NCBI GenBank assembly: GCA_046541415.1
Contig: JBKHDI010000007.1
Coordinates: 1,713-65,712, forward strand
Source: Phycisphaerae bacterium
Lineage (GTDB): Bacteria > Planctomycetota > Phycisphaerae > SM23-33
Direction: 5' to 3'
DNA: 64,000 bases
Shown here piece after piece: positions 33,001 through 54,000 of the stretch (the stretch's first letter is position 1; each line of letters starts with the position of its first letter). The position numbers were made by a program.

Positions 33001-36000
33001 AGCAACGTCGTCGCAACAATGTTCCCGGTGGATGCGAACCTGTCGGCTGATCCACCACGTCGCCGGGTGAAAGAAACCTACCGTCTCGGCCAGCGCCTGG
33101 CCGATCGCCACCAGCCCGTCCAGCCGCCGGATGTGGGCCAACTCGTGGGCCAGCAGGGCCCGCACCTGCTCCGACGGAAGCCCCGTGGCCAGGCTGGCAG
33201 GCCAGAGCACCACCGGCCGCAGCCATCCGATGACCGCCGGGACACTCTCCATCGCCGCGACCGCCAGCCGGACAGGCCGCGTCACGCCGAGCCGCACGCA
33301 AAGATCGTCTAGCAGCTGCTGCAAATCGCCACTGGGTCGCCCGCCGGCCAAGCGCCCGAGCCGAAAGGCAGCGACCCAGCCCCCAGCCTGCCAGATCGCC
33401 ATCCCCGCCGCACCGAGACACCAGGCCACCGCGGCCCAGCCGGCAAGGACATCCGCCGCCGAGACCCGCCGTCCCGCATTGCTCTTGACGATCACCTTGT
33501 CGCCTGCTGCCTTACCACGTTCGCCCGGACCCGACGCCACGGGCTTCGAACCAACCGTGTACCCGTTCGAACCCGCCCCCGCGTCGGTCATTGGCGATTC
33601 CGTCTGTCCACTGCGCGGGCGGTATTCCTTCTGGAAGGGCAGGGCTCGACCGGGATCGACCAGCCAGAACGTTACGAACATCGCCAGCACCCCGCCGGTC
33701 AGGGTCAGGCAGCTCATGGCGTACTGCCATTGGGGCCTGCGACGCCGCAGGGCCAGCAGTCCCATCATCATCAGTACCATCGCGGCCGTAAGCTGCCACA
33801 TCGCATGGAAAACCGTCCAGCCAAGCCGCCGGGCGATGTCCGACTGGATAAAGTCATGCAGATTCATCGTCGCTGCCTCCCTTGTCCGCCCGATCGATCA
33901 GTTCCTGGATCTCGCCCAATTCTTCCGGCGTGATCCGCTCGGCCGCTGCGGCCCGAAGGATCATCTTCCGGGCCGAACCGCCGAAGGCACGCTGCAACAG
34001 GTCATCCAGCAGGCCGATCTGCGTCTGCTCCTGCTGCTGGGCGGGCCTGTAAAGCTGCGGACGGACCGACGCGTCTTTGAGCAGCAGGCCCTTGTCGGTC
34101 ATCACCTGCATCATCTTCAGCGTCGTCGAATAGCCCGTCCGACGGCTGGCTCCCAGCACGTCATGAACCTGCCGGACGGTCGCCGGCCCTGTGTCCCAGA
34201 GCACCTGGAGGATCTCCAGTTCCACATCCGTCGGTTGACTGGCCGGCTGTCGTGGCACGTCAGGCTCCTGCCGAAGAAAGAAACCGTCCCACCCGGCCAC
34301 GGTCATCCGCGGCACGAGCGGTACAGAACAGTCTGACGAAAGTATTCGTCATCCAGGCCGTGCATGTCAAGCAGATTCACGAAGGAATTCGTCAGAAGCC
34401 ATCTCTCTGCGGGAATTGCGCGATCGGCGGGGTGTTGCAGGCGGGGCCCTACAGCGGTCAACTTTATCCGGTTTAGTAAAATCGGAAAAAGTTTATCAAT
34501 TCCAAGGATTTCAATAATGAAAAAGACGGGCAGTTTCCGATAGGATACATGAAAGCTTAGCGTAGTACGCCGCAGAAGAAACCGCGCAGGTCTCCCTCCT
34601 CCTGACCCGGTAACTGCGGCTGGAGCTTTAAGGCGACTTTCAGGTCTCCCTCCGCCTGGAAGTCGCCTGGCTTTTTTATCTGGAGATCCGCCATCGGATT
34701 GCGGGACGGCGTCCTGGCGGAACAGATATATAAAACCGGCCGGGCCTCCGGGGGAGGCTCGGCCGGTGACAGAGTCCGGGATCAAACGGAATCCATCAAA
34801 TCCTTTCGCCGCAGGCGGTTCTATTTGATGGCCTTGAGCTTGGCGGCCTTGTCTTCGGCGGAGAGTTTATCCCACGCGGCAGGGCAGCCTCCGCAACAGA
34901 AGGCCACGGTCTGGCCCTTGAACTGGCGGGTCAGCGAATCCTTGACGTTTTTGGCATGGATCGGCGAACCCATGGTCGGGCACTTGGCATTGGCGTAGAG
35001 GCCTTCCTTTCCCTTGGCGTCATGGTTTTTATCTGCGTGGTGTTTGTGGCCCTTGTGGGCATCGGCAGTTGCTACAGCCTTTGCAGCCATTTTCTGGACT
35101 GGCTGAAGAGCTTCGCGGGCGGTGGCCAGGGCTGCCAGGGCCTCTTTCTCGTTGCCGGCCTTGATGGCGGCCTCGACGGCGTCGAGCTTCTCTATCGCGG
35201 CCTCGGTCTTGTGATGGGCGCACTTGCCGCACATGGCGCCTTGGGCCATGGCCTCCTTGCATCCGGTGCATTTTTTGACCTTGGCCTGCTTCTGGTCGTC
35301 ATCGACGCTGGCCAATACGTCAGCAGCCTGCTTGGCGGCACAGGACTTGGATGCGACGGCCTTGTCAGACCCGCAGGCCTTCTTGCCATCGACGCTGGCT
35401 ACGACATCGGCAGCCTGCTTGGGGGCGCAGGACTTGGATGCAACGGCCTTGTCAGTCCCGCAGGCCTTCTGTCCGTCCGCGCTGGCCACTACGTCTGCCG
35501 CTTTGGTGGCAGGGCAGGATTCGGACGCCACAGCCGCTGATCCGCAGGATTTGCCCCCGCTGCCTGCCAGGGCCGGCAGGGCGATTACGGCAACCAGAAC
35601 GGTACAGATGACCGAGGCGGCGATGATTGTCTTGCTGCGTTTCATGTTGACTCCTTTGATGTGTTTCTCACTTGCCGGATCGGGTGGAACTACGACCTCT
35701 TCATGTTGATTACGAGACAGGGCATGGATACGTTCCGCAAAAAGCATTATAAAGCGATCGGACTAGTAGGAATTATACGGGCTAAGCGACCCTGAGATAG
35801 AAGAACAGGGATCGTTCACTCGGCAGCGGCCTGGCGGATGGCCGTGAGCACGTCGAGCAGTTCCATCTCTGTAAACTCTTTTCCGATAGCTACGTAGGTG
35901 TCGCCCTGGATTGAGGTTGCTGCCATCCTGCAGCCGTTCTGGCTGCACCACGCGAATTCCTTGCCATCCCGGGTGAACGGATGGGTGAACCCCAGTTGGG

Positions 36001-51000: not shown

Positions 51001-54000
51001 CGGCCGTTGTCGCCTTGCCCCTGATGGTTCGCTCGGTCCGCCTGTCGATGGAGCTGGTTGACACTCAATTGGAGCAGGCCGCTGCCACTCTGGGCTGCTC
51101 GCCGCTGCGGACATTCTGCACCGTGACGCTGCCGTTGGCGGCGCCGGGGATACTGGCAGGGGGGATCCTGGCCTTCGCCCGCAGCCTGGGTGAGTTCGGG
51201 GCCACGATCAGCTTCGCCGGCAACATCGCCGGGCGGACCCGCACCTTGCCGCTGGCCATCTATAACCGGATTTCCACGCCGGGTGGTGAATCGGCCGCGA
51301 TGCGCCTGGCCATGGTCTCGGTGGTGTTGTCTGTCGCTGCATTGCTGGTCTCGGAACTCCTGGCCCGGCGCATCCGACGGAAACTCGGAGCGACAGGGTG
51401 AACCTGCACATGGACATCGAGTTGAGCCGCCAGGAGTTCAGGCTCGAGCTGGCAGGAGCGTTCCGGTCCCGCGTCACCGGATTGTTCGGGCCCAGCGGGT
51501 CGGGCAAGACCACGCTGCTGAATGTCATCGCGGGCCTGGACAGGTCCGCGCGTGGAAGGCTGATGCTCAACGATACGGTCCTGCAGGACAGCGCCCGAGG
51601 CGTCTTCGTCCCACCGCACAAGCGGCGGGTGGCGGTGGCATTCCAGAACGATCGGCTCTTTCCGCACGTGTCGGTGGCAGGAAACCTGGAATTCGGCCGC
51701 AGACGCCTGGCAGCCCCCCGCCGGACAATGCAGACGGCTGAGGTGGCCGAGTTGCTGGGCATCGGTCCTCTTCTGGGCAGGCGGACCCGGGGTCTTTCCG
51801 GCGGGGAGCGACAGCGCGTCGCCTTGGGCCGGGCCCTGCTGGCTGAGCCCGAACTGCTGCTGCTGGATGAGCCGCTGGCCTCGCTGGACGTGGCCCTGCG
51901 CTACCAGATCCTGCCCGTGCTTCGCCGCGTCCGGGATGCCTGCGACGTTCCGATCCTCATCGTCAGCCACGATCTGAGCGAACTGCTGGAGCTGACCGAC
52001 CAACTGGCGGTCATCGCAGGCGGAAAGCTGCTGGGCCAGGGGTCGTTCGTCGACCTGGCCCGAGGCGAGCAGACCCACTCTCTGATGCACGAGGTGGGCC
52101 TGCCGAACCTGCTTTCGGTGCGTGTGGTCAAGAACCGCCGGCGAGAGGGGATCAGCCTCTGCAGACTCATCGGCCCAGGCGAGGGGCAGGCCGAACTGCC
52201 AACCCTGCACCTGCCGCTGGTCGATGCGCCCGAAGGCGCCGAGATCCGCGCGCTGTGCCGGGCAGATGAAATTGCCCTCTCGGCCGCACCTGTCGAGGGG
52301 GTCAGCATGCAGAATCAGCTGCGCGGACAGGTCGAGGCGATGACCGAGGTCGCCAGCCGCAGCGTCTGCCTGGTCGACGTCGGCTGTCAACTGCTGGTGG
52401 AAATCACGCCGCGTTCGGCCCGTCTGCTGGGCCTGGCGCCCGGCAGCGAGGTCTGGTGTCTTTTCAAGACGCAGTCGATCCGCCCGCTTTCGAACTGAAC
52501 ATCGGAACCTGTGGCCGGATTGGTCCGTTGTAGCCAGTGATACCGAAGGTACAATATTCAGGGAGTACCAGCATGATACGTTTTGTTTCTTTCGCCTCGG
52601 TTCTGGCCATCGCCTGCTTCGGCGCCGTCGCCACCTGGCCGGGCGCCTGCAATACCACGAGGAACGCCATGACAGACAAGGCTATCGCATCCACCGTCGG
52701 ACAGGAGAAACCCGAGACCCAGACCCAGACCGCCATTTTCGCCGCCGGCTGCTTCTGGGGCGTCGAGTACACCTTCCGGACCATCGAGGGCGTGCTGGAT
52801 ACCGAGGTCGGCTACACCGGCGGACACAAGGACAACCCGACGTATAAAGAGGTATGTTCGGATACAACCGGCCACGCCGAGGCGGTGAAAGTGGTCTACG
52901 ACCCCGAGCAGGTCAGCTACGAGAAACTGCTGGAGGTCTTCTGGGCCAATCACGACCCGACCCAGGTCGACCGCCAGGGCCCCGATGTCGGCAGCCAGTA
53001 TCGCTCGGCGATCTTCTATACCAGCGACGAGCAGAAAGAGCAGGCCGAGACATCCAAGGCCGCCCAAGCCGAGAAACGCTCCCGCCCGATCGCCACGGAA
53101 ATCACCGAGGCAGATACCTTCTACCGGGCCGAGGAATACCACCAGCAGTACCTCGAAAAAACCGGCCGCGTCTGCCACTGAGCCAGACGTTGGATGTGCG
53201 CCTGCCATGTAGAGAGGGCCATAGAGCGACAATTCCGGAAGCTCACACCCCACAAGCGGATGACAACTGCCGCTGCAACCTCTATCATGTCGACACAACC
53301 CATTGATGGAGAGGTGCAGCGTGACGGAATTCGTCAAGGGCGATGTGGTATACGAGAACCCGCTTTCCGGGCCTGATGATGTCAAGGACTTCATCGCCGA
53401 GGGCCAGCCGATAACGAGTTTCCCGATGGGAGCGATGCGGCTGGAGAACGCGATGGACCCGGAAGAAGGACAGGCGGCGAACTATCTGTTCTGGTGCCCG
53501 CAGAAGATGCCCGCCGATATCAGCATCGAGTGGGACTTTCGGCCCATCCGCGAGCCGGGGCTGGCGATGCTCTGGTTCTGCGCCGACGGCCAGGGGGGCA
53601 AGGACCTGTTCGACCCGTCGCTGGCCAAGCGGGCCGGGGAGTACAAGCAGTATCACTCCAGCGACATCAATGGCTATCACGCGTCGTACTTCCGCCGCAA
53701 GAACGTCAAGTGGGAGCGGACGTTCCACACCTGCAACATGCGGAAGTCAGCCGGGTTCCACCTGGTTACCCAGGGCCCGGACCCGATCCCCTCGGTCATC
53801 GACGTCCAGGACAGTTATCACATCGAAGTCATCAAATGCGGGGGGACCATTCGCTTTTCGGTCAACGATCTGCAGGTCTTCCAGTGGCAGGACCCGGGCG
53901 AAGGCCAAACCGGCCCGATCCTCGGCGAAGGCTACATCGGCTTCCGCCAGATGGCCCCGCTGATCGCCGACTACGCCAACCTGGTCGTCCGAGAGGTCAG

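Follow-up and report, generated by a model that had tools for sequence, protein, structure and literature searches.

Which signal does an extracytoplasmic function (ECF) sigma factor paired with a membrane-spanning anti-sigma factor answer to, and which genes does it serve? The question is raised by a locus in the draft genome of a Phycisphaerae bacterium (4.07 Mb, 64.5% GC), where a sigma gene, its anti-sigma gene and a gene for an exported Cys-repeat protein lie together, with msrA, a gene for an exported methionine sulfoxide reductase, 15 kb away. We analysed the whole stretch of 64 000 nt around it (C7:1713-65712), referred to below as the window. An earlier note on this DNA had proposed that the three transcription units share one promoter motif and form a periplasm-sensing version of the thiol-stress system, with a transmembrane redox or metal sensor.

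Sequence comparison and a predicted structure lead us to a somewhat different answer. We consider it probable that the locus encodes a regulon for periplasmic stress by soft metals of the Cu/Ag type, governed by an autoregulated ECF sigma factor of SigH/SigR-like lineage and its transmembrane anti-sigma factor. In the best-supported reading the conserved output would be periplasmic handling and efflux of soft metals, with MsrA and HtpX added in the bacterium's own lineage. What relatives keep among the outputs favours metal over redox, namely an exported Cys protein of YHS/TRASH-like type and efflux genes of the CusCBA type. Thus, from the proposal of a ‘redox or metal’ sensor the metal part gains by the conserved YHS/TRASH-like and Cus targets, the redox part less so. 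The SigH-like ancestry, the membrane-spanning sensor and the exported effectors of the proposed thiol-stress system stand as well, but not its emphasis in output, since few lineages have the site before msrA and relatives do not keep that of msrB. Nor does the regulon end at the borders of the window: cusBA and htpX, with ftsH and msrB as possible further members, are on other contigs.

Promoter motif in the window and in the genome

All three proposed sites, with a common motif, a 17-nt spacer and the correct orientation, are present 39–62 nt before gene starts (Table 1). The sigma gene is preceded by GGAACCTTCCACGCGAAACCCCCGTT, 39 nt upstream of the ATG at 37149; the Cys-repeat gene by GGAACGTATCCATGCCCTGTCTCGTA, with 62 nt to the ATG at 35648; and msrA by GGAACCTGTGGCCGGATTGGTCCGTT, with 43 nt to the ATG at 52573. 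We counted five exact matches to GGAAC-N17-CGT(T/A) in the window, compared with 0.71 +/- 0.94 in shuffled sequences (five or more matches in 0 of 100 shuffles). The other two matches, at 241-266 and 6212-6237, are inside coding sequence.

The genome-wide scan asked for in the earlier note gave a divided result. The total, 43 exact matches in 4.07 Mb, is near chance density; 20 of them are intergenic, against ∼11% of the genome being so. When matches in promoter position were tallied by spacer length, N17 had 12, compared with two to five for each of N12–15 and N18–21, eight for N16 and seven for N22. The excess amounts to roughly eight real promoters with exact N17 spacing, three of which are in the window. 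The motif is not obviously common to other autoregulated ECFs of the genome, because only one of the 21 genes with an ECF-type region 4, the sigma gene at 36595-37149, has it upstream.

Exact-box counts with spacer controls were used in place of a position-weight matrix (18 cross-species sites with flanks), which we dropped: AT-rich flanks dominated it and left the own sigma promoter outside the top 60. One match to the matrix, on contig C8 (332-373, reverse strand), precedes an unrelated small gene ∼2 kb from a gene for a CopA-like ATPase; the ATPase gene itself has no motif in promoter position. A motif match before a flavoprotein gene (C135:5584) was rejected as a false positive, being inside the true coding sequence, whose start is MNVIAFNGSPRR.

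Homologues of the anti-sigma factor were found in 17 of 61 related genomes, and footprinting at the sigma locus gave a clear pattern. With spacers free, the boxes before the sigma gene are kept in 11 related genomes and those before the gene that follows the anti-sigma gene (the +2 gene) in nine. The same two-site layout is present in L108 and L111, the closest metagenomic relatives, and in L112, while N18 variants of the sigma-gene site occur in L015, L017 and L118. Altogether, the related genomes or contigs with sigma-gene boxes number at least 17, and those with boxes after the anti-sigma gene at least 12; the CGTA box of the Cys-repeat gene recurs in L108 and L111. Predicted autoregulation and a conserved +2 target are well supported by this footprinting. 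The idea that one ECF sigma serves all three promoters of the window is likewise supported by the specificity of the motif and its conservation.

The exported Cys-rich protein and Cus-type efflux operons

The +2 gene of the window encodes an exported Cys-rich protein; we place its start at 35648 rather than at the upstream in-frame ATG at 35747. The +2 proteins of relatives are also exported, vary in length from 112 to 309 aa and have one invariant C-terminal module in common, N-x2-C-P-x-M-G-x22-V-x-F-C-C-x2-C-x3-W, in which C223, P224, M226, G227, F250, C251, C252, C255 and W259 are invariant (alignment A3). By eye, the CPxMG...FCCxxC pattern resembles YHS and looks like a YHS/TRASH metal-binding module. 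With the protein as query, neither Pfam nor NCBIfam yielded a significant match, and a profile search of the PDB returned low-complexity matches only; a homologue had faint matches to Ta0938, ATPase-cat_bd and TRASH_HVO_1752_C. The +2 gene encodes a YHS/TRASH-like Cys protein in G001, G020, G032, G019, G022, G042, L108, L111 and L112. We think that the protein is a probable periplasmic metal buffer or chaperone. In G022 (L005, 374-1063) the CPxMG...FCCxxC module is present in two copies; in G042 (L012, 2765-3079) it is found only in a shifted frame, suggesting a frameshift or sequencing error.

In relatives the +2 gene is often followed, or replaced, by Cus-type efflux genes. The sigma locus includes an outer-membrane factor gene in G019, G022 and G060 and a gene for a CusB-type adaptor with a heavy-metal-binding domain (HMBD) in G009 and G042. 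The fullest series is that of L112, with the order sigma, anti-sigma, YHS-like, OEP, YHS, CusB (HMBD x2) and CusA; the same efflux series is present in L113, and in L118 divergent OEP-CusB-CusA genes have N18 motifs in both directions. Operons unlinked to the sigma gene have the motif as well: 70 nt before cusB in G005, 125 nt before cusB in G041, 60 nt before an OEP gene preceding cusB in G011 and 32 nt before a small Cys-rich open reading frame (ORF) preceding cusB in G001. The latter ORF (L128, 2871-3254, reverse strand; 127 aa) has a signal-like start and several CC pairs; possibly it encodes a further metal protein of the small, exported, Cys-rich kind.

The own genome has a single pair of HMBD-CusB and resistance-nodulation-division (RND) pump genes (C39:10687-16419), and GGAACC-N18-CGTT stands 42 nt before it. 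Matches of the adaptor are to HlyD_D23 (CusB, 3.8e-71), HMBD twice (6.2e-23) and DUF3347; the next gene, an ORF of 1222 aa, is taken as the RND pump by size and position, and its homologues in L112 and L113 match ACR_tran. Across the related genomes, the motif precedes Cus-type genes in 10 of 15 genomes with both the sigma system and a CusB homologue (carriers), compared with 0 of 8 non-carriers (Fisher P = 0.003).

A sigma factor of SigH/SigR-like lineage

The sigma factor has regions 2 and 4 only (Sigma70_r2, 3.6e-15; Sigma70_r4_2, 2.9e-17; Pfam), as is characteristic of ECF (group 4) sigma factors, and its score with the TIGR02937 sigma70-ECF model, 91.8 bits, exceeds the cutoff of 42.9. 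The top model of 96 was TIGR02947, SigH_actino, at 136.5 bits (next model, 107.7), under its cutoff of 251.55. The nearest solved structure is Mycobacterium tuberculosis SigH (5zx2_F; E-value 1.7e-29, ∼45% identity over 174 residues); SigE, RpoE, SigW and CnrH are far behind, CnrH with 33 bits as compared with 106 for SigH. A locus search with the sigma factor as query returned unrelated Bacteroidota ECFs only.

The consensus of M. tuberculosis SigH is (G/T)GGAA(C/T)A-16 nt-(C/G)GTT (quoted in PMC3489674). The conserved GGAAC(C/G)-N16-CGTT of our 23 aligned sites, where binding is predicted, has the same geometry. The comparison with SigH/SigR made in the earlier note thus has a basis in sequence, because the sigma factor matches SigH best, both as model and as structure, and the motif geometry equals the published consensus.

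The transmembrane anti-sigma factor

The anti-sigma factor is predicted to consist of a cytoplasmic helical domain, a membrane helix at about residues 83–103 and a periplasmic alpha/beta domain (104–259). Profile matches were sub-threshold and fell within residues 24–113: DUF3379 at 20.8 bits (cutoff 33.2) and NF052375 with an E-value of 1.8e-4. In the AlphaFold2 (AF2) model (mean predicted local distance difference test score, pLDDT, 89.8) helices 3–14, 25–47 and 54–67 precede the membrane helix, and Cys217 and Cys222 flank a beta-hairpin turn in the helix-plus-sheet periplasmic domain. A fold search with the model against the PDB gave nothing at E ≤ 0.001 (best E-value 4.7e-3). NrsF, a membrane anti-sigma factor of Caulobacter, is a multi-pass DUF1109 protein; DUF1109 did not match our anti-sigma factor even at E ≤ 10, and a single membrane helix was predicted in it.

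A word-index search for homologues retrieved three proteins; an exhaustive search of 1.8 billion representative proteins gave a family of 144 clusters at 50% identity. Residue conservation was determined in an alignment of 91 family members (A4). In agreement with the earlier note, the cytoplasmic HxxxCxxC motif is missing from the own protein, and its periplasmic Cys are four; they are Cys164, Cys166, Cys217 and Cys222. Their conservation is uneven: Cys222 (78%) and Cys166 (74%; a second Cys at 167 in 64%) are well kept, but Cys217 is present in 48% and Cys164 in 14%, and the best kept periplasmic residue is His118, just outside the membrane, in 89 of 91 members (98%).

Of the 91 members, 44 have a cytoplasmic HxxxCxxC. 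Cys217 was observed in 8 of these 44 and in 36 of the 47 members without the motif (P = 2e-8, a statistic that ignores phylogeny), and it is accompanied by Cys222 in 42 of 44 cases. Two sub-types are apparent in the alignment, one with the cytoplasmic HxxxCxxC and periplasmic GCC, Cys222 and Cys235, the other with no zinc motif and with the periplasmic pair Cys217-x4-Cys222. The anticorrelation of the zinc motif and Cys217 fits the earlier idea of sensing on the periplasmic rather than the cytoplasmic side.

MsrA and other candidate targets

The product of msrA matches PMSR with an E-value of 2.5e-66 and has the GCFWG active site within AAGCFWGVE. The export signal ascribed to it is borne out by a hydrophobic N-terminal leader; among orthologues with the motif, that of G025 has a classic lipobox (LASC) and that of G001 a hydrophobic leader ending in GARC. 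Both MsrA and the Cys-rich protein are thus predicted to be exported, in agreement with the notion of exported effectors. The boxes recur 36 nt before the ATG in G001 and 38 nt in G025, with unrelated spacers; the site was found in 3 of 10 carriers (own genome, G001, G025) and in 0 of 19 genomes without the sigma system (P = 0.03). On this comparison we regard msrA as a real but lineage-specific target. The overlapping sigma70-like promoter suggested earlier is not borne out, since a scan for sigma70-type promoters before msrA found none meeting its criteria, and TTGTAG-16-TACAAT, picked by eye, would leave almost no leader before the ribosome-binding site. The product of the gene that follows msrA (53321-54010, forward strand) is a DUF1961 protein (1.9e-92). 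Co-transcription of the two genes is possible, given a gap of 139 nt and no terminator in the part of the gap scanned (to 52650).

The site before htpX is kept only in G001, a member of the same genus, at 45 nt upstream and also with CGTA; G005 has a motif as well, but at 320 nt. Possibly msrB is a target too. Its site, C73:7000-7025, falls within the end of the gene before it, at a distance of 109 nt, and we list it as a candidate only. Other candidate targets are ftsH, glnA and genes for a YdjM-type membrane protein, an esterase, a TPR protein and a small lipoprotein. The exact GGAACC-N16-CGTT before the glutamine synthetase gene (C8:41292-41317, forward strand, 110 nt upstream) could be either a candidate target site or a chance match.

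Organization of the locus

The coordinates of the features are given in Table 1.

Table 1. Features of the sigma locus and of msrA in the window
Feature	Coordinates	Strand	Remarks
Predicted ECF promoter of the sigma/anti-sigma operon, autoregulatory	37188..37213	-	GGAACC-N16-CGTT; boxes kept in relatives
Predicted ECF promoter of the Cys-repeat/YHS-like gene	35711..35736	-	GGAACG-N16-CGTA; second site kept in relatives
Predicted ECF promoter of msrA	52504..52529	+	GGAACC-N16-CGTT; same boxes in G001 and G025
ECF sigma factor, SigH/SigR-like, 184 aa	36595..37149	-	Sigma70_r2, Sigma70_r4_2
Single-pass anti-sigma factor, 259 aa	35816..36595	-	Start overlaps sigma stop (TGATG)
Exported Cys-rich protein, 275 aa	34821..35648	-	Signal peptide, Cys-pair repeats, Cys/His-rich middle, C-terminal module
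Tandem repeat, 87 bp, 2.3 copies, 84% identity	35300..35495	.	Encodes the Cys-pair units
Terminator-like hairpin with T run	37231..37246	-	Between the stop of the beta-barrel gene (37291) and the sigma -35 box
Exported MsrA, 202 aa	52573..53181	+	PMSR (PF01625), GCFWG; catalytic domain from residue 53

The terminator-like hairpin upstream of the sigma gene suggests that transcripts of the sigma operon start at the promoter before it and do not arise by read-through. The operon that ends just upstream (37291-43961, reverse strand) encodes a thioredoxin, DUF302, MMPL, LolA-like and beta-barrel proteins; no ECF motif was found before it. Since the beta-barrel gene, or the MMPL/LolA-like part, is also upstream of sigma in G001 and L116, this neighbourhood may be functional.

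On the other side of the locus, just downstream of the Cys-repeat gene and on the opposite (forward) strand, there is a terminator-like hairpin with a CUCCCUCC loop at 34631-34668 (segment 34569-34678); as far as we can see it is not a part of the regulon. Further on (31231-34315, reverse strand) a gene for a BlaI-type repressor (Penicillinase_R) adjoins that for an 878-aa BlaR1/M56 protein, which also matches a periplasmic segment of AcrB (ACR_tran, residues 395–489).

Proposed mechanism

In the absence of a signal, sigma would be held at the membrane by the N-terminal, cytoplasmic domain of the anti-sigma factor. The signal would come from the periplasm, thiophilic metals such as Cu(I) or Ag(I) being the likeliest candidates, and would act on the C-terminal domain with its near-invariant His118 and with Cys166, Cys217 and Cys222. 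Sigma would then be set free, through either a change in conformation or regulated proteolysis. Free sigma would then read the GGAAC(C)-N16/17-CGT(T/A) promoters, that of its own operon among them, producing positive feedback. Its further outputs would be the adjacent exported YHS/TRASH-like protein and the CusBA-type efflux operon on another contig, complemented in this lineage by envelope repair and quality control through exported MsrA and HtpX, possibly also through an MsrB lipoprotein and FtsH. The motif and its conservation, the identities of the genes and the co-occurrence of motif and sigma system are observed; the binding of sigma to the sites, the identity of the signal and the mode of release are what we infer.

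Several observations weigh against this picture. The identity of the signal is deduced from the products of target genes alone, and the Cus-like pumps are assigned to Cu/Ag through HMBD and YHS domains alone. The Cys-rich protein itself has no match to YHS (PF04945) in Pfam, its sole weak match there being ATPase-cat_bd (E-value 0.095). The spacer before the own cusBA is 18 nt, not 17. In the Cus tally of 15 carriers, G012 and G032 read ambiguously for the motif, and G004, G025 and G051 have a CusB homologue with no motif within 1.5 kb of cusB. The msrB site is kept in 0 of 30 msrB loci. The periplasmic Cys are not invariant and could form structural disulfides. Finally, the genes of the genome were taken from a home-made codon-usage caller (3111 genes, 89% coding).

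Alternative explanations

The anti-sigma factor could instead be a periplasm-facing sensor of thiols or oxidants, in which HOCl, reactive oxygen species or disulfide stress would oxidize the CX4C pair 217/222 and free sigma; MsrA and MsrB would repair exported proteins, and the Cys-rich protein would be a sacrificial thiol sink. The sigma factor is SigH/SigR-like, and this lineage governs thiol stress as well as msrA/msrB (PMC3489674). The motif precedes exported MsrA in three genomes, and MsrB and HtpX in the own genome; loss of the zinc (ZAS) motif accompanies gain of the periplasmic Cys217; and there are precedents in Caulobacter NrsF, with two periplasmic Cys (PMC3511200), and Haemophilus influenzae RpoE2, with periplasmic MsrAB under HOCl (PMC7907618). 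Still, we hold this explanation to be unlikely, though not negligible. The conserved targets are of metal type (YHS/TRASH-like proteins, HMBD-CusB, OEP, RND pumps), the methionine sulfoxide reductase genes being the minority or unkept ones, and Cys217, on which the oxidation would depend, is much less conserved in the family than His118. Copper is known to damage thiols and methionine in the periplasm, and MsrA and HtpX would fit a metal regulon equally well. As copper stress and periplasmic oxidation of thiols and methionine are linked, the metal and oxidant readings may not be exclusive.

If, on the other hand, the periplasmic domain sensed misfolded or mislocalized envelope proteins or lipoproteins, in the manner of RseA/RseB, the system would be a generic envelope-stress ECF, its Cys forming structural disulfides and its metal neighbours being one cargo among many. 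HtpX and FtsH, proteases of membrane protein quality control, have the motif in promoter position; the MMPL/LolA-like/beta-barrel operon is directly upstream of sigma here, in G001 and in L116; and RseB appears among the many weak fold matches. These matches are not significant, though; the htpX site is confined to one genus and that of ftsH is a candidate, while the YHS-like +2 gene and the Cus operons are consistent partners across genera. We rate this explanation as quite improbable. It is harder still to believe that the msrA site arose by chance, or that it serves one of the remaining 20 ECF-type sigma factors, with the two sites at the sigma locus alone being real. The genome-wide density of the exact pattern does equal that of chance, the position-weight scan with flanks was unable to split true sites from background, and AAC/CGT boxes are widespread among ECF groups. 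But the msrA boxes stand at 36–43 nt in three genomes with unrelated spacers and in none of the genomes without the sigma system, the motif is upstream of no other ECF gene in the genome, and the excess in promoter position is specific to N17.

Relation to known systems

The nearest sigma factors are those of the actinobacterial SigH/SigR-RshA/RsrA systems (ECF12), which are similar in sequence (∼45% identity) and equal in promoter geometry, are autoregulated and have msrA in the regulon (PMC3489674); about half of the anti-sigma family described here also retains the HxxxCxxC zinc motif, in likeness to RsrA/RshA. However, RsrA and RshA are soluble ZAS proteins, whereas the anti-sigma factor here is membrane-spanning, with a periplasmic domain of ∼155 residues, and has no zinc motif. 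Exported proteins for metal handling and RND efflux take the place of thioredoxin or mycothiol genes among the conserved targets, and the sigma factor scores under the TIGR02947 cutoff. In Neisseria (sigmaE-MseR) and H. influenzae (RpoE2-HrsE) a methionine sulfoxide reductase of the periplasm belongs to the regulon of a SigR-related ECF (PMC7907618, PMC2893595); the anti-sigma factors there are small and cytoplasmic (HrsE, 67 aa), with cytoplasmic sensing and no link to Cus or YHS genes.

Signalling through periplasmic Cys of a membrane anti-sigma factor is known from Caulobacter sigmaF-NrsF, Azospira SigF-NrsF and Bradyrhizobium EcfF-OsrA (PMC3511200, PMC4436054). These systems respond to Cr, Cd or HOCl and have a small periplasmic-repair regulon with a shared promoter motif (PMC3511200, PMC4436054), but their sigma lineage and motif (GTAACC-N16-CGAA) are different. 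In CnrH-CnrYX and in groups ECF281, ECF290 and ECF291 a periplasmic metal frees an ECF from a membrane anti-sigma factor, with RND tripartite efflux as the output; in ECF281, where sigma is followed by a zinc-finger anti-sigma factor at +1 and a metal-resistance protein at +2, the likeness is in gene order only (PMC7826278, PMC6851896). Unlike CnrH-CnrYX, the system described here has no separate CnrX-like sensor and no short CnrY-type anti-sigma factor, and the match to CnrH is weak; in distinction from CnrH and the ECF281-type groups, its +2 protein is a YHS/TRASH-like Cys protein, and the HMBD domains of the efflux genes make Cu/Ag a better fit than Ni/Co. CorE and CarQ of Myxococcus xanthus, both copper-responsive ECFs, are alike in that an ECF sigma controls copper-handling genes (PMC3107203, PMC6851896). 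CorE has no anti-sigma factor and binds copper by a C-terminal Cys-rich extension, whereas the sigma factor here has a membrane anti-sigma factor and no such extension. The own system combines features of these known systems and, by the features tested, is a member of none.

Biological meaning

Efflux of copper and silver is usually under the control of two-component systems (CusRS, CopRS) or MerR-type regulators. ECFs named for excess metals in a review (PMC6851896) are of the CnrH, CarQ and CorE types only. Here, a SigH-like sigma factor, with relatives that govern the answer of Actinobacteria to thiol stress in the cytoplasm, appears to be wired to a membrane-spanning anti-sigma factor and to exported metal-handling, efflux and repair genes, in a phylum with very few characterized regulators. 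Members of the regulon can be recognized straight from genome sequence, since their promoters have a simple motif that relatives keep. A role of exported MsrA and HtpX in metal stress would agree with the current view that copper damages periplasmic proteins.

The sensor domain of the anti-sigma factor has no Pfam model, and its fold, predicted with high confidence, has no solved relative. The family also offers a testable case of a redox/zinc switch and a periplasmic sensor replacing each other. One could speculate further, and tentatively, that the periplasmic domain is an undescribed one-component sensor of soft metals, binding Cu(I)/Ag(I) via His118, Cys166, Cys217 and Cys222; that its YHS/TRASH-like partner, always adjacent and induced by sigma, is a metallochaperone that feeds or resets both the sensor and the Cus pump; and that within the family a cytoplasmic zinc-thiol switch of SigH type has been swapped for the periplasmic Cys pair. 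If true, evolution would here have carried a thiol switch of the ECF12 type to the other side of the membrane.

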